This document shows, in pieces, positions 2,229-14,073 of a DNA stretch of 64,000 nucleotides (positions are counted from its first letter, which is position 1; each line of letters opens with the position of its first letter). Where the stretch lies: contig JAFCFZ010000004.1 in assembly GCA_017608385.1 (NCBI GenBank), forward strand, positions 2,253 to 66,252, given 5' to 3'. The notes under the pieces were generated by a model. The model was given only the letters and a program-made list of their open reading frames with translations. It was not told the DNA's origin and did not search any database. The DNA is from Candidatus Parvarchaeota archaeon. GTDB taxonomy: Archaea > Nanobdellota > Nanobdellia > B33-G15. Both the position numbers and the translations under genes were made by a program.

Positions 2229-3290
2229 TTATGTATCATATCTCAGGAGACCACCATAGCCCCCCATTTCATGAAACTGTTTTCCTTCCATTGTTTCTTC
2301 TGAAATAAATATCATTTTTGTGCCCGATTTTGTTGCCATTTCCTCTAATTCTTCATCTCCGTCTTCTTTCAAAAGTAATATTTCAACAGCACCAGCTTCT
2401 AAATCAGCTTTTACTTGGTCTTTTCCATAGCTTATTTTCTCATTTTTTCCTAGTTGTGAGAAGAATTTAGTTACATATTCTTTTTCTTCAGCAATACTTT
2501 CTTCTTTTAATACATCTAAACTCTTGTCAACTAATTCTTTTAATCCAAAATCACCAGTATAACCCACATCTTTGACAGCAATTATTTTCTCTTGAATTTT
2601 TTTAGGCAAAAATTCTTTGAAAGTTTCTTTGGTAGGACCAGGACCACCCAAAATAATTCCATCAAATTCTTTGATCCCAAATAATTCATCAACTGTTTGA
2701 GCATTTTCTCTATACCAAGACTTAGCCATGTTTTCTCTTACCCTACTAAATCTCGCAGAACTTTGACCACCTGCTCTTATCTTTCCTGGAACTATTGAAT
2801 CTTCATTTTTGATGGTGGTGATGTTCTTTCCCTTTAACATGCCAATTGTGATGTTTTTGTTGTCTACTACAACTAAGCCATACTTTCTTTTTGCTTCTAT
2901 CATATTTTTTAATGGTTCCAATAAAAATTCTTGTTCACATCTATACATTTTGACATTTAATGGCTCAGGAGGTTCTATCATCCATATTCCTATATCTTGT
3001 GAGCCTTCTTTTTCAGAAACATTTCCTGAGAATATAGCAAGACCATGTGGAGGGATCTTTTTATAGAATTTGAATTCCTGACTTATTTTATCAAGTGCAG
3101 AAATTACATTTTGTCTTGTAGATTTTGATCTAATGTTTTTTGCTGTTCCTCTTTCTTGAGATACTAGAGTTTTAATATAATTAATATCATATCCAGCAGG
3201 AACATAGATAGTAACAAGTTCGGTATGCCTACCTCTAACCTTTCCAATTCTCTTTAATAGCTTTTTTAGCTTTCTTTTAGCTTCTTCCAT
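2229..3290 (-). CDS. prf1: Peptide chain release factor aRF1
   Basis: GGQ motif (KIRAGGQSSARFSR), NIKS-like motif TAKNIRSKSTR, and eRF1 N-domain similarity at the N-terminus. It is compact (353 aa). Confidence 0.9.
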   Translation of the reverse strand: MEEAKRKLKKLLKRIGKVRGRHTELVTIYVPAGYDINYIKTLVSQERGTAKNIRSKSTRQNVISALDKISQEFKFYKKIPPHGLAIFSGNVSEKEGSQDIGIWMIEPPEPLNVKMYRCEQEFLLEPLKNMIEAKRKYGLVVVDNKNITIGMLKGKNITTIKNEDSIVPGKIRAGGQSSARFSRVRENMAKSWYRENAQTVDELFGIKEFDGIILGGPGPTKETFKEFLPKKIQEKIIAVKDVGYTGDFGLKELVDKSLDVLKEESIAEEKEYVTKFFSQLGKNEKISYGKDQVKADLEAGAVEILLLKEDGDEELEEMATKSGTKMIFISEETMEGKQFHEMGGYGGLLRYDT

Positions 3291-3308
3291 AAATAATCAA
3301 TCCAAAGC

Positions 3309-4094
3309 TTATGTTTTAAATTTTCTTCCAAAAAGAGAAGTTTGTTCAAGAACATCTTCTAATAAAATCTTCATACCATCCTCAGCGGATCTGCAAGGAA
3401 CTTTAGTTTCAAGAGAAATTCTTCTTGCTTGATTTAAAGGGCCAACTCTTAACATTTTTAGTCCAAAGTGAGTTATTATTACAGATTTTGGCTTTTCTTT
3501 AATTTCATCAAGGATTTTTATGACTTCGTTTGTTGTTAGATGATTTTTCCAATAAGCATTGTTTGGTCTAAGAACATTAATTATGAGTAAATCCACTCCT
3601 TCAAATTGTTTTGACAGAGTTTTGAAGTATCCTGTGTCTCCCATATAACCTATTTTCTTTCCTTCTGTTTCAATAATAAATCCAATACTCTTGTCTCCAT
3701 GGATTGTTTTTGTCCCGGTTATCTTTAAATCACTTAATTCAATCTCCTTTTTTGGAATGATTTCAATTATTTCATTGTAAAATTTTTTGTAAAATTCATT
3801 GATTACTTTATTATCCCCAATTAAACACTCTTTTATAGAAATTAATACTGCTTCATTTACTGCTTCAGAAATACCTTCCATATCTCCAGAATGATCTGTG
3901 TGATAATGAGATAATAAAACAACATTTGTTCTTCTTGGGTCTTGTCTGAGCATCTTCATTTTTAATAAAGCTCCTGGACCTGGATCTATGTGTATTTGAT
4001 GATTGTCTGTTTTGATCAAAATTCCGCCGGTAGATCTGGCCTGTGTGGCTAAAACCATTCTTCCACCTCCAGATCCCAAAAAGACAATTTCCAT
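3309..4094 (-). CDS. Metallo-beta-lactamase fold hydrolase
   Basis: N-terminus MEIVFLGSGGG and HxHxDH motif (LLSHYHTDHSGD). Confidence 0.7.
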   Translation of the reverse strand: MEIVFLGSGGGRMVLATQARSTGGILIKTDNHQIHIDPGPGALLKMKMLRQDPRRTNVVLLSHYHTDHSGDMEGISEAVNEAVLISIKECLIGDNKVINEFYKKFYNEIIEIIPKKEIELSDLKITGTKTIHGDKSIGFIIETEGKKIGYMGDTGYFKTLSKQFEGVDLLIINVLRPNNAYWKNHLTTNEVIKILDEIKEKPKSVIITHFGLKMLRVGPLNQARRISLETKVPCRSAEDGMKILLEDVLEQTSLFGRKFKT

Positions 4095-4264: not shown

Positions 4265-4750
4265 ATGAAAAGAAACTATATATTTAAGGCACAAATAGAA
4301 ATTGCAAAAAAAGAGATTATGAAAGAGTTATCTCATAGAAGAAGAGAGGTTCCTTTCTTAGTTTGGTTCTTTTCAATAATAGGTTTTTATGGAGCAAGAT
4401 TATTTGTTTTAATTTTCCCAGAGGTTAATTTAATAATTTCAGAGTTCCATATACATCACTTTTACTATGGTGTTATTTTGATTGTATTAGCAGGAGCTTT
4501 AGCCTTAACATTCAAAGGAATAAGATTAGCAAGGAGTTCTGCAATACTTTATGGTCTTGGTTTGGGAATTACTTTTGATGAGATAGGTCTTTTTCTTACA
4601 GAAGGGAATTATTGGGCAGATATAACATATGTTATTTTTTACACATTTTTAGCATTAAGTCTTGTTTTGTTCTTTTTATGGGATTTTGGAACCTCCAGTT
4701 ATGGTAAAAATTTAAGAAAGAAAATGAGAAAATACATTTCTAAAAATTAA
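4265..4750 (+). CDS. Hypothetical membrane protein (about 4 TM)
   Basis: ORF with hydrophobic helices; no recognizable motif. Confidence 0.4.
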   Translation: MKRNYIFKAQIEIAKKEIMKELSHRRREVPFLVWFFSIIGFYGARLFVLIFPEVNLIISEFHIHHFYYGVILIVLAGALALTFKGIRLARSSAILYGLGLGITFDEIGLFLTEGNYWADITYVIFYTFLALSLVLFFLWDFGTSSYGKNLRKKMRKYISKN

Positions 4751-5127
4751 GGGTTAATAAACCGCATATGAAATCTTGAGATCTCATTACTAACTAATTC
4801 TCTGAATTTTTGAGATTTTTCATTTTCATAGATCTTTATTTCATTTGGTTTTATGATATAACCTTGATTTTCTGTAACAACATATATCAAGAAACCTCCC
4901 TGTTTTGAAATACCTTGAATCTTTTCTAAATCTTGATGGGAAAGTCCTTCTCCCTTTAGAAAAATACAAAAACCTCCGTCTCTAGCAAGACCAAAAGTAT
5001 ATGGTTTTATTCTCATACCTTCAGCCTTGATGAAGATCTCTCTCATTCCTTTAGAAATCATATTTCTTTTTTTGTTAAAATCATTGATTAAAGCAGAATT
5101 ATCTGATTTTTGAGCCATTTTTAGCAT
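4747..5127 (-). CDS. Hypothetical protein
   Basis: ORF only. It overlaps the 5' end of the downstream tRNA-binding ORF, so the true start may be an internal Met. Confidence 0.3.
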   Translation of the reverse strand: MLKMAQKSDNSALINDFNKKRNMISKGMREIFIKAEGMRIKPYTFGLARDGGFCIFLKGEGLSHQDLEKIQGISKQGGFLIYVVTENQGYIIKPNEIKIYENEKSQKFRELVSNEISRFHMRFINP

Positions 5128-5413
5128 CCTCCATTGTTGTCAATAAGATCATGTCATCCGTTGCTAATAACATGCCATGGCTTTCAATACCTCTAATTTT
5201 CTTTGGTTCAAGATTGGCCACAATTATTATTTTTTTACCTTTTAAATCCTTGCAAGAATATTTTTCAGCAAGCCCAGTTAAAATAACCCTTTTTCCTTTT
5301 TCTCCCAAATCTAGTTCAAGTTTGAGTAGTTTTTCAGTGTTGGGAACTTTTTCACATAAAATTACTTCAGCTGTTCTAAGGTCAACATTTTGAAAGTCTT
5401 CGAATTTTATCAT
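5099..5413 (-). CDS. Stand-alone tRNA-binding domain protein (Trbp111/CsaA/EMAP-like, equivalent to the MetRS C-terminal domain)
   Basis: MIKFEDFQNVDLRTAEVILCEKV...KIRGIESHGMLLA matches the OB-fold tRNA-binding domain. The ATG overlaps the metG stop (ATGA). Confidence 0.75.
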   Translation of the reverse strand: MIKFEDFQNVDLRTAEVILCEKVPNTEKLLKLELDLGEKGKRVILTGLAEKYSCKDLKGKKIIIVANLEPKKIRGIESHGMLLATDDMILLTTMEDAKNGSKIR

Positions 5414-7047
5414 TTTTCACCAAATATCTTTTCCAGAGGTGTTGGATTAGTAACGATTTTTTTAATCTTATTTAATTCCTCTCTTTTTATTTTTGGAAAC
5501 AATAGATCTATTGCTTTTATCTTTTTCCCACCTAACTTTTTATTGATTTGTTCCCATTCTATTTCAAAACTAAAAGCATTTGCAACCTTTTGACATGATT
5601 CTGGAATGAATGGAGATAACATGATTGTGATGTTCTTGATTAGATTAGAACAAACCCATAAAACAGTTTCAACATTTTTTCCACCTTCCCATGGTTTGTT
5701 ATGTTGAAAATATTGATTTGCTTTATCAGATAGTAAGAGAATCTTTTTCAAGGCCTCTCTTAGCTTAATTTCATCCACCAGTTTTTTTATTTCCTCACTT
5801 GTTTTTACCGAACTCTCTATTAATTCCAAATCCTTTTTTGAAGGAGAACCTTTCTTTAATTTTCCACCTCTTTTATCGATAAAGGTAATAATTCTATTGA
5901 TTAGGTTTCCATAATTTCCTAACAATTCCTTGTTTGTTTTTTCCACAAATTCATCCCATTTCCAATCAGTATCCTTTCCTTCAGGTAAAAGAAACGATAA
6001 ATAAAATCTCCAAACATCAGAGGGAATGCCGGTTTCTGCTAATTTTTCACAGAAAATACCCCATTTGTTCGATTTGCTTATTTTTTTACCTTCATAATTT
6101 AAGAATTGGAGACCAGCTACTTTGTAAGGTAGAGTAAATTCTCCATTTGCTAATAACATCCCTCCCCACCACACTGTATGGAAAGGTATATTGTCTTTTC
6201 CAAGGAAATGAACTATTTTTGAGTCTTTTTTTTTCCAAAATGAGGTCCAGTCCTTTCGTAATTCTTTAGTTCCTGAGATATAACCTATTGGAGCATCAAA
6301 CCAGACGTAAAACACCTTATCTTCCCAACCTTTTAGAGGAACTTTTACTCCCCATTCTAAGTCTCTAGTGATGCTTCTTGGTTTCAATCCTCTTTTTAGC
6401 CAACTTAATGCAAGATTTTTTGTCCCAACATTCCAATCTGCTTTTTCTACCCATTTTTTTATTTTTGGAGATAATTTATCTAATTCTAAGAATAAATGTT
6501 TAAATTTTTTGAAAGAAGGAGATTCTCCACAAATTGCACATTTAGGGTTTATCAATTTGTCAGCATCTAATAATTCAGTACATTTTTCACATTGGTCTCC
6601 TCTAGCTCGCTCGTATTTACATTTAGGACATGATCCTTCAATATACCTATCTGGTAAAACTCTTTCACAAGAATTACAATAAGGAAGCCTTACTGTTTTT
6701 TCCTGTATGTATTTGTTTTTCCATATTTTCTTGAAGAAATCTTGAGTTGTTTTGTGATGGATTTCTCTACTTGTTCTCGAGAAATTATCGTAACTAATTT
6801 GGAGCCAGTCATAGATGTTTTTGTGGATAACATAAAAGGTATCACATAATCTTTCAGGAGAAACCCCTAGTTTTTTTGCTTGAACTTCAGAAGGAGTCCC
6901 ATGTTCATCAGTACCCCCTATGAAAATACACTCATTTCCAAATAATCTTTGGAATCTTGAATAAATATCTGCAGGTAAATGTGAACCTACGATGTTCCCT
7001 ACATGAGGAACCTCATTTACATATGGTAGTGCTGATGTTACAATAAT
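5410..7047 (-). CDS. metG: Methionyl-tRNA synthetase (class I). The true N-terminus extends about 490 nt upstream of the ORF-track start at 6555
   Basis: The in-frame minus-strand translation of 6556..7059 reads KIIVTSALPYVNEVPHVGNIVGSHLPADIYSRFQRLFGNECIFIGGTDEHGTP, the PHxGN variant of the HIGH motif as in eukaryotic/archaeal MetRS. A zinc knuckle follows (CNSCERV...CPKCKYERARGDQCEKCTELL). It is contiguous with the track ORF, which itself begins at a TTG. The in-frame stop is at 7060-7062. Confidence 0.85.
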   Translation of the reverse strand: MIVTSALPYVNEVPHVGNIVGSHLPADIYSRFQRLFGNECIFIGGTDEHGTPSEVQAKKLGVSPERLCDTFYVIHKNIYDWLQISYDNFSRTSREIHHKTTQDFFKKIWKNKYIQEKTVRLPYCNSCERVLPDRYIEGSCPKCKYERARGDQCEKCTELLDADKLINPKCAICGESPSFKKFKHLFLELDKLSPKIKKWVEKADWNVGTKNLALSWLKRGLKPRSITRDLEWGVKVPLKGWEDKVFYVWFDAPIGYISGTKELRKDWTSFWKKKDSKIVHFLGKDNIPFHTVWWGGMLLANGEFTLPYKVAGLQFLNYEGKKISKSNKWGIFCEKLAETGIPSDVWRFYLSFLLPEGKDTDWKWDEFVEKTNKELLGNYGNLINRIITFIDKRGGKLKKGSPSKKDLELIESSVKTSEEIKKLVDEIKLREALKKILLLSDKANQYFQHNKPWEGGKNVETVLWVCSNLIKNITIMLSPFIPESCQKVANAFSFEIEWEQINKKLGGKKIKAIDLLFPKIKREELNKIKKIVTNPTPLEKIFGEK

Positions 7048-7142
7048 TTTGAATTCAATTCACCTATCTCTTATGATTTGAAATGTATTTAAAAAAATTC
7101 CCAAAGTAAAGCTTTTTAAATAGTTCTAACAAAGAGTTCGTT

Positions 7143-7484
7143 ATGTTAGCAAATAATCCACCACATCAATTGTTGGCCACCATATTGGGAACCAGTATCT
7201 CTAAATTAACTGAAGAGAATGTGTCAGAATTTGAAAAAAGTCTCACACAAGAGGAAATAGGAAGTGACTCAATTAAGAGGTTTGGAGATTATAAAGGGTA
7301 TAAAATTTTGATGGTATGTAGCGAAGCTTCTTGTTCAGCAATTGGGGGCAGGGGAGGTTCAAATGAAGATAGAATATCATTTCATTATGATTCACAAAAA
7401 GATAAAATGATTTTTATTACAGACAAAAGAAAAATGAAATCAATACCTGGATTTAGCTGCTATGAATGTAACTTCAGAGTTTAA
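7143..7484 (+). CDS. Hypothetical small Cys-rich protein
   Basis: ORF with CSEASCS...CYEC cysteine pairs; no family recognised. Confidence 0.3.
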   Translation: MLANNPPHQLLATILGTSISKLTEENVSEFEKSLTQEEIGSDSIKRFGDYKGYKILMVCSEASCSAIGGRGGSNEDRISFHYDSQKDKMIFITDKRKMKSIPGFSCYECNFRV

Positions 7485-13535: not shown

Positions 13536-13572
13536 ATTAAGTTTTTTAAAACGAAAAAGAGTTTAATTCTTT

Positions 13573-14073
13573 ATGGATTGTCTATTTTGCAACATTGTTT
13601 CAGGAAAAGTTCCTAGTTTGAAGTTATTTGAAGATGATTTATTTCTAGCAATTTTGGATATAAAGCCTGGAAATCCTGGGCACTTCATTGTTTTTCCTAA
13701 AAAACATATACCCTTTCTTACAGAGATGGAACCAAAACAAAGGGGAGTTCTTTTTAACATAGCAACAGAAATTGGCAAGAGAATGGTTTCAATGGTAGAA
13801 GCTGAAGGATTTAATATTGTTTATTCGGCAGGAACTGTTGCTGGTCAAATAACCCCCCATATGCTTGTTCATGTTATTCCAAGATTCAAAGATGATAAGG
13901 TCGATATAAAATGGGAACCAGTTCAAGTTTCTGAAGAAATGTACAAGAAATTAATATCTGCTTTTTCTGGAACAGAAGAGAAGAAAGAGGAAAAGAAGGA
14001 AGAACCACCAGAGGAAAAAAATGAATTTGATGAGCTTCCTCAGATTAAAAGAAGATCACCAAGATATTGGTAA
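13573..14073 (+). CDS. HIT-family (histidine triad) protein with a degenerate triad and a K/E-rich C-terminal tail
   Basis: N-terminal CLFCNIV zinc motif. The triad region reads PHMLVHVIPR, i.e. H-x-L-x-H rather than H-x-H-x-H. The tail is EEKKEEKKEEPPEE. Confidence 0.7.
   Translation: MDCLFCNIVSGKVPSLKLFEDDLFLAILDIKPGNPGHFIVFPKKHIPFLTEMEPKQRGVLFNIATEIGKRMVSMVEAEGFNIVYSAGTVAGQITPHMLVHVIPRFKDDKVDIKWEPVQVSEEMYKKLISAFSGTEEKKEEKKEEPPEEKNEFDELPQIKRRSPRYW

Follow-up and report, generated by a model that had tools for sequence, protein, structure and literature searches.

A methionyl-tRNA synthetase gene without a canonical start codon in a Candidatus Parvarchaeota archaeon, and its candidate out-of-frame GUG start

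The metG gene of a Candidatus Parvarchaeota archaeon, encoding methionyl-tRNA synthetase (MetRS), was analysed in a 64,000-nucleotide (nt) stretch of contig JAFCFZ010000004.1 (assembly GCA_017608385.1, positions 2,253 to 66,252), hereafter the window, to which coordinates refer unless another locus is named. Located on the minus strand, metG possesses an intact catalytic reading frame that lacks a canonical in-frame start codon. This absence is reproducible, persists between clades that are 61% identical, and recurs in several archaeal lineages, with either an ATA at the start position or an out-of-frame GTG. Regarding how the gene is translated, we tentatively favour initiation at a GUG located one base out of the metG frame, which would be followed by an obligatory +1 shift at AAU-UGA; a near-cognate AUU start is a close rival.

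The metG frame encodes a complete catalytic core but no canonical start codon

The minus-strand frame is open from a TGA at 7062–7060 to the TGA at 5412–5410 and delimits a metG core open reading frame (ORF; 5410..7059) of 549 codons plus stop. Directly after the upstream TGA it reads ATT GAA TTC AAA ATT ATT GTA ACA, corresponding to a stop followed by IEFKIIVTSALPYVNEVPHVGN, within the minus-strand context ...TTTTTTTAAATACATTTCAAATCATAAGAGATAGGTGAATTGAATTCAAAATTATTGTAACATCAGCACTACCATATGTAAATGAG.... No in-frame ATG, GTG or TTG occurs before the TTG at 6555 (6553..6555), as a sequence-only reading of this DNA had claimed and as both the frame and the ORF list confirm; 168 codons precede that TTG. 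Of the 63 long ORFs surveyed in the window, all but metG have a canonical start close to where their frame opens. Gene callers use TTG 6555 as the start, which yields a truncated product of 381 amino acids (aa), and this product (P0001/P0121) is the only version of the protein held for the organism in the public collection. The 168 start-less codons contain the HIGH-type motif HVGN (6994..7005, residues 19–22) and three of the four CXXC zinc-knuckle motifs (CXXC span 6678–6580; all four lie within 6529..6678, residues 128–177), and a start at the TTG would drop the former and most of the zinc knuckles. The KMSKS-type motif KISKS is located further downstream (6070..6084, residues 326–330).

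The 549-residue product matches PF09334 (tRNA-synt_1g) with 500 bits (cutoff 20.1), its residues 6–390 covering Pfam positions 2–390 of 391. Among NCBIfam models, it exceeds the cutoffs of NF001100 (607 bits versus an equivalog cutoff of 587) and TIGR00398 (554 versus 336 bits), and a MetRS-type anticodon-binding domain is present (PF19303, 36.6 bits; PF08264, 30.7 bits; both above their cutoffs). Among solved structures, PDB 1rqg and 5gl7 are its closest relatives, and its residues 4–5 onward align with the solved human and Pyrococcus abyssi enzymes. By these matches, the metG product is classified as a class I MetRS of the archaeal/eukaryotic type without the C-terminal tRNA-binding domain. 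Since the match to MetRS profiles and structures begins near residue 1, the TTG 6555 call is wrong, in agreement with the sequence-only reading, and the catalytic N-terminus must be translated. Among GTDB representative genomes, the best MetRS match reached 49% identity and no close relative of the window organism was found; the nearest MetRS clusters carry the NCBI labels Nanoarchaeota or Aenigmarchaeota, and the G+C content of the window is about 31%.

The missing start codon is reproducible and the gene is conserved

A missing start codon is a classic signature of sequencing or assembly error, the gene callers' truncated product would fit such an error as well, and an assembly error had been the alternative offered in the sequence-only reading. 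Three further contigs, from three different JGI metagenome samples, are 99.90–99.98% identical to the window over about 6 kb, with 1–6 single-nucleotide polymorphisms (SNPs) and no gaps, and are identical to it both at the metG start region and at the junction between metG and the gene for a tRNA-binding protein that follows it. Because these independent assemblies agree at the start region though differing by SNPs elsewhere, an assembly error is very unlikely, and the missing start codon is real. Nor does the locus look like a dying gene, as the 549-codon frame is intact, contains all the catalytic motifs and encodes a product above the NCBIfam equivalog cutoff. The same architecture is found, moreover, in a sister clade under purifying selection. 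On these grounds, we consider an artefact at 7040–7065 or a pseudogene very improbable.

The sister clade comprises seven contigs in two sub-lineages, L005/L102/L103 and L104–L107, whose proteins are 93% identical while their fourfold-degenerate sites differ by 30%. Its proteins fall in P0002, the nearest homolog cluster, which is 61–62% identical to the window protein and has the C-terminal tRNA-binding domain fused. Public calls for P0002 members are all N-truncated and start from internal GTG codons, except for one NCBI call from a CTG (P0124, MVTAALPY), and N-truncated calls occur in at least 8 of the 119 nearest clusters.

Promoter geometry and a conserved block point to an out-of-frame GTG as a candidate start

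A Shine-Dalgarno (SD)-like hexamer, AGGTGA (7060..7065), overlaps the in-frame TGA that closes the metG frame upstream, and in-frame ATT codons are present at 7059–7057, 7047–7045 and 7044–7042; these elements had all been pointed out before and stand as described. The hexamer includes a GTG (7061..7063) that lies one base out of the metG frame and is a candidate leaderless initiation codon. A TATA-like box, TTTAAATA (7086..7093, minus strand), starts 30 nt before this GTG and 34 nt before ATT 7059. Across the window, 17 of 30 strong TATA-like 8-mers start 27–31 nt before an ATG (for example 7115–7143, 3290–3320 and 13545–13573), and SD-like GGTG/GGAG motifs are found mainly before genes inside operons. 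As the 27–31 nt spacing of TATA-like boxes holds for the ATGs of most first genes, leaderless mRNAs appear to predominate in the organism. The L005 lineage exhibits the same leaderless geometry, its metG GTG also being 30 nt from the box. By the genome's own geometry, we infer that the codon expected at the 5' end of the metG mRNA is the out-of-frame GTG. The intergenic region (7060–7142) spans 83 nt and contains two divergent TATA-like boxes about 22 nt apart, one for metG and the other for a conserved plus-strand ORF of 113 aa and unknown function (7143–7484).

At the corresponding site, the sister clade reads CTTTTTAAAC...(24 nt)...AGGTGA TTT GAA TTC AAG GTC CTG GTT ACC, with TTT AAA TTC AAG in the second sub-lineage, and has in common with the window the TATA-like box with its spacing, the AGGTGA, the in-frame TGA and the E/K-F-K codons. 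Conservation across clades thus comprises TTTTTAAA, then 24 nt, then AGGTGA-N-TT[G/A]AATTCAAG, with flanks saturated with changes, and the window shares with its nearest relative, L005, the block AGGTGA-N-TTGAATTCAA. After AGGTGA, the clades match at 10 of 12 positions, versus about 26% expected for neutral sequence. Within the sister clade, the block varies only by a GAA-to-AAA replacement (E to K), at a position where canonical N-termini (MEFK/MKFK, VVEF/VIKF) vary too. The conservation of the block, together with an E-to-K change that mirrors canonical N-terminal variation, argues that the E/K-F-K codons are translated.

The codon matching ATT 7059 is TTT in all seven sister-clade contigs, and an AUU start therefore cannot explain the whole clade. 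Since TTT, not ATT, follows the in-frame TGA there, the GTG is that clade's sole possible source of a start ahead of the conserved E/K-F-K. When read from the GTG, the frame meets an early stop in all three lineages, namely TGA in the window, TGA in L005 and TAA in L104–107.

The first metG codons of the window also contain a perfect 10-bp palindrome, TTGAATTCAA (7049–7058), which is present in L005 and broken in L104–107 (TTAAATTCAA). The palindrome probably just reflects the Glu-Phe codons.

Starts of metG in other archaeal lineages

Many canonical archaeal metG genes start at a GTG inside (A)GGTG(A/G). Homologs in this context begin GTG-[ATT/GTA]-[GAA/AAA]-TTC, as represented by L111 (AGAGGTG GTA GAA TTC; V V E F), L050 (AAG GTG ATT AAA), L038 (CTG GTG ATC) and L012 (TTG GTG ATA), and many JGI-called homologs begin V-[VI]-[EKN]-[FL]. 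As to whether orthologs carry an ATG at the position of ATT 7059 (7057..7059), the first codon of the open metG frame, the comparison was divided: MEFK-type homologs do have ATG there, and other lineages also lack a canonical start.

The latter include L036, L108 and L109, in which no usable canonical start exists at the metG N-terminus and which, like L005/L102–107, keep the AGGTGA. Read from their GTG, the window (GTG AAT TGA A), L005 (GTG ATT TGA A) and L104–107 (GTG ATT TAA A) would each need a +1 shift to enter the metG frame, as would L109 (GTG GTA AAC CTT CAA TAA A, with CAA TAA A as its shift site) and L036 (GTG ATT AAT CTT CAA AAA CGC..., without an early stop); L108 (GTG ATT AGT TCA AGA AAA AAG) would need a −1 shift. 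The zero-frame peptide of L109, MVNLQ, resembles MVELT of its canonical sister P0054, and that of L036, MINLQK, resembles VVNLEK of P0118. In L108 (1440–1500), the GTG lies in the +1 frame with respect to the metG ORF, and a zero-frame dnaX-type heptamer, A_AAA_AAG, is present with AGGTGA 10 nt upstream; a −1 shift would give MISSRKKVLVLCALPY, of the same length as the canonical sister MVELTKRVLVLCALPY. The first-codon frame breaks in L109 and L108 fall at shift-prone-looking sites. In a rough neighbour-joining tree, the window is placed beside L005/L104, and L036, L109 and L108 beside canonical genes, a pattern suggesting that indels broke the frame in the first metG codons independently three to four times. 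As a separate observation, L108 also has an in-frame TTG further downstream that offers an alternative start.

A further, monophyletic clade carries ATA at the homologs' ATG position, which is also that of ATT 7059. It consists of L006 (start locus 1440–1475), L022 (1600–1660), L023/L057 (L023 2470–2530), L024 (2470–2520) and L034 (440–500), with all 13 members of the P0025 and P0036 clusters. These genes read GGAGGT, 6 nt, ATA GCN GAR AAR, and lack any canonical start from the upstream stop to ALPY; a TAG is situated immediately 5' of the ATA in L034. All public gene calls in the clade are N-truncated. Judging from this arrangement, the clade probably uses a conserved AUA start codon served by a good SD site. 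The long leaders (L006 1340–1470; L023 2400–2500) contain inverted repeats, ATAGGAACC ... GGTTCCTAT, with an anti-SD-like ACCTCC nearby. These elements could sequester the SD, and the leaders match no Rfam family.

A more general proposition is that archaeal metG genes repeatedly carry recoding signals in their first codons, in the form of an obligatory +1 shift at NNU-UGA/UAA-A immediately after a leaderless GUG in the window's clade and of a conserved AUA start in the other; in this general form we hold it to be rather doubtful.

A different kind of change was observed in L110 (1426–1510), whose metG begins at an ordinary ATG and reads MIEKRVLVTAALPY until an insertion of 25 nt, AAATGGGAGATATTCCATTGCGGAT, breaks both the frame and the motif P-Y-I-N-N-V-P-H, between its Y and I. 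The insertion is flanked by TATAAAT direct repeats, and the flanking exon sequences GCGGCA/UGCCGC can pair (minimum free energy −22.4 kcal/mol, z −2.4). This insert could be either a mini-intron interrupting a protein-coding gene or an insertion that shifts the frame.

GUG initiation and a +1 shift as the favoured reading

According to the reading that we favour, metG would be transcribed from the TATA-like box at 7093–7086 into a leaderless or nearly leaderless mRNA starting at about 7065–7063 (5'-AGGUGAAUUGAAUUC...). The initiator tRNA would start on GUG 7063–7061, the counterpart of the in-frame start GUG of canonical relatives. One extra nucleotide separates this GUG from the conserved GAA UUC AAA (E F K) and would set the zero frame to GUG AAU UGA. 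With AAU in the P site and a slowly decoded UGA in the A site (7055..7057, in the proposed shift site AAU-UGA-A), a fraction of the ribosomes would move +1 and read GAA. Ribosomes that had shifted would go on through all of the metG frame, and the protein is predicted to begin M-N-E-F-K-I-I-V-T-S-A-L-P-Y. Initiation may take place in parallel at the near-cognate, in-frame AUU 7059, and the tRNA-binding domain would be made as a separate beta subunit through coupled reinitiation at an ATGA overlap.

The locus displays the architecture of a +1 frameshift, with a zero-frame start followed by a stop (GTG AAT TGA, 7063–7055) and a main ORF in the +1 frame that has no start of its own. GUG initiation with a shift is favoured because it would account for the conserved AGGTGA, the TATA spacing and the in-frame E/K-F-K, and because the sister clade has no in-frame near-cognate codon upstream of E/K-F-K. 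On the sequences compared, it is the only model that would cover the window and the sister clade with one mechanism.

Several points weigh against it. The prior is low: according to a 2021 review, the sole experimentally reported programmed frameshift in a cellular archaeal gene is the −1 event of fucA1, and beyond it only +1 events in archaeal viruses and a frameshift in a magnesium chelatase gene have been suggested (PMC8211752). The P-site tRNA would re-pair poorly after a +1 slip (AAU to AUU, two of three positions). Moreover, no stimulatory RNA structure was detected downstream, where the fold z-score was about 0 (−0.03), no covariation was seen and no Rfam family matched. The SD-like AGGTGA overlaps the start codon and does not lie 3 nt upstream of the shift codon as in prfB. 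The stop in the GTG frame follows automatically from the T that precedes the Glu/Lys codon and is not independent evidence. Among the relatives, L036 has no early zero-frame stop and L108 would need a shift in the opposite direction, and three to four independent indels would also fit an indel-tolerant region with the true start elsewhere. Finally, the window, unlike the sister clade, has an in-frame near-cognate ATT directly available, and its transcription start is predicted by geometry only, to about 3 nt.

Near-cognate AUU starts and other alternatives

The closest rival of GUG initiation with a shift is near-cognate initiation at AUU 7059–7057, a few nt from the mRNA 5' end, which would give M-E-F-K-I-I-V-T and act as a weak, possibly regulatory start, comparable to the AUU of bacterial infC. 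This AUU is the first codon of the open frame and occupies the place of the ATG in MEFK/MKFK-type homologs and of the ATA in the ATA clade, a clade by which near-cognate AUH starts are probably in use in archaeal metG genes; L036, in addition, has an ATC 3 nt after AGGTGA. The resulting N-terminus would be of the usual length when compared with the Pfam and NCBIfam profiles and with P. abyssi MetRS. The AUU start put forward in the sequence-only reading is quite possible, though the case for it is weakened. The TTT of the sister clade, within a surrounding block that is kept, implies that AUU is not that clade's mechanism. Furthermore, AGGTGA abuts ATT 7059 without a spacer, as against about 4–8 nt after GGTG(A/G) in the window's SD-led genes, and the 34 nt from the TATA-like box fall outside the 27–31 nt mode. 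A better start codon, GUG, lies 4 nt upstream and nearer the predicted 5' end, as favoured by the promoter geometry.

Initiation at one of the two AUU codons further downstream (7042..7047), at 7047–7045 or 7044–7042, is weaker and in our judgement unlikely. It would give M-I-V-T or M-V-T-S-A-L-P-Y and turn the stretch from AGGUGA to UUCAAA into an untranslated leader. In most of the non-canonical lineages, the codon before V-T-x-A-L-P-Y is start-capable (ATT in the window, CTG in L005/L104, ATA in L036, TTG in L108), which holds for about 4 of the 16 canonical ATG-start loci compared. The NCBI pipeline annotated the CTG aligned with ATT 7044 as the sister-clade start (P0124), and the product would still cover the Pfam profile from position 1–2. 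This position is, however, a conserved Ile/Leu, at which start-capable codons are partly expected, and L109 has no such codon there. The upstream E/K-F-K, in frame and conserved despite saturated synonymous sites, argues for translation of the supposed leader. In addition, the two codons are 15–18 nt away from AGGTGA and 46–49 nt from the TATA-like box, and no SD is suitably spaced from them.

Read-through or decoding of TGA 7062–7060 from an in-frame TTG at 7104, 14 codons upstream of it, is hardly credible, given that the TATA-like box lies within this stretch, which the sister clade does not conserve, that TGA ends many window ORFs including metG and long ORFs are intact under the standard code, and that homologous MetRS N-termini begin within a few residues of the opening of the metG frame.

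Other candidates were discarded. A TTG start at 7058–7056 combined with a −1 shift on the A4 run is ruled out by L104–107, which have TTA there, and an upstream exon or intron supplying an ATG is ruled out by the 83-nt intergenic region with its two divergent promoters and no minus-strand ATG. A tRNA-like or otherwise structured RNA at the 5' end, prompted by UUCAA, found no support, with a z-score of −0.03, only a 5-bp helix explained by the conserved codons and no Rfam match. A TTC start positioned by the SD (TTC is found 7–9 nt after the SD core in six of six lineages) is biochemically implausible and is also countered by L109 and L036, where those bases read L-Q in the GTG frame and match canonical N-termini. 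A codon bias towards TTC as an RNA-level signal was weak, with a joint probability of only about 0.02.

A separate gene for the tRNA-binding domain

The C-terminal tRNA-binding domain is encoded downstream of metG as a separate 104-aa ORF (5099..5413, minus strand), its product resembling Trbp111 and the MetRS beta subunit. This is the arrangement that the sequence-only reading had proposed, including the ATGA stop-start overlap with metG (5410..5413), which is identical in the three other assemblies. The protein matches PF01588 (tRNA_bind) with 83.8 bits over residues 12–101, which correspond to profile positions 1–95 of 96 and hence to a complete domain. It scores 112.0 bits against TIGR00399 (metG_C_term, 'MetRS subunit beta'), narrowly below the cutoff of 116.65, and PDB 1pyb (Aquifex Trbp111) and 8vtz ('MetRS beta subunit') both match it at E of about 2e-24.

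In relatives, the split is found in part. The sister clade has the domain fused at exactly this point, reading ...PTPLEDYFQISIDEFRKADLRVG, versus ...PTPLEKIFGEK and a stop, then MIKFEDFQNVDLRTA, in the window. L111 has a separate tRNA_bind gene downstream after a 27-nt gap, and about 15% of the top MetRS homologs lack a fused C-terminal domain. Since an NCBIfam 'MetRS subunit beta' model exists and this share of top homologs goes without the fusion, the split, as read from the sequence, is a real and already known arrangement and not an unusual one. It resembles split MetRS (alpha plus a Trbp111-like beta; TIGR00399, 8vtz, 1pyb) in having a core without the C-terminal domain and a free-standing protein of about 105–113 aa that matches the fused one, and differs from it in the ATGA overlap directly after an A5 run and in the score just below the TIGR00399 cutoff. 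The overlap fits coupled termination-reinitiation, by which metG and the tRNA-binding gene would be co-expressed.

The A5 run precedes the metG stop (GAA AAA TGA, window 5410–5420). A −1 slip of tRNA-Lys on it, which is possible and not needed to explain the locus, would lead to ATG being read next and to a fused protein like the fused MetRS of relatives.

Further downstream, an ORF of unknown function encoding 123–126 aa (4747..5127, minus strand) shares about 29 nt with the end of the tRNA-binding gene. Neither Pfam nor NCBIfam gave a match to it; an ORF of 121–123 aa occurs in the same place in L001–L005 and L102–107 (121 aa in the sister clade; L005 4868–5233). It may represent a conserved operon partner.

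Comparison with known systems and implications

Near-cognate starts and programmed frameshifts are both already known kinds of event. Bacterial prfB, encoding release factor 2, contains a programmed +1 frameshift at CUU UGA C with an upstream SD-like element. The metG locus resembles it in having a short zero-frame ORF ending in UGA, a main product in the +1 frame without its own start, and an SD-like element just upstream, in an arrangement conserved across lineages, at least between the window and its sister clade. It differs in that ribosomes would shift at the second codon of an mRNA that is probably leaderless, with an SD-like element overlapping the start codon and not placed 3 nt before the shift codon, and with AAU/AUU rather than CUU as the P-site codon. 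The product, moreover, is a tRNA synthetase, so there is no obvious counterpart to release-factor feedback, and we know of no feedback logic for MetRS. Bacterial infC, encoding IF3, uses an AUU start codon. As an essential translation gene with a conserved near-cognate AUH start, it has a likeness in the ATA-start metG clade, whereas the ATT of the window is not at a working distance from an SD and is replaced by TTT in the sister clade; discrimination of start codons would, in archaea, fall to aIF1 and not to IF3.

The fucA1 gene of Saccharolobus solfataricus is likewise an archaeal cellular gene split by a one-base frame break, with full-length relatives differing by one base at the site. 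Its −1 event takes place mid-gene on an A-AAA-AAT heptamer, as opposed to the +1 shift two codons after the start that metG would need in the window (PMC8211752). Among the loci compared, L108 is the one that resembles fucA1 and dnaX. Our literature search found no description of a non-canonical start or a programmed frameshift for archaeal metG, its coverage being incomplete and not a proof of novelty.

Such metG genes are truncated by gene callers, which distorts annotation and completeness estimates for poorly known archaea. MetRS charges both initiator and elongator tRNA-Met, and initiation on its own mRNA therefore bears on translation control. If the +1 shift is true, metG would offer a tractable, conserved cellular +1 frameshift in Archaea, where none is established, and possibly an aminoacyl-tRNA synthetase regulatory circuit. 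A conserved, programmed +1 frameshift in a cellular gene would then be on record in Archaea for the first time, and production of the enzyme that charges the initiator tRNA would hinge on how faithfully initiation, decoding or termination proceeds. If an AUU or AUA start is true instead, metG would represent an archaeal counterpart of the infC AUU start.

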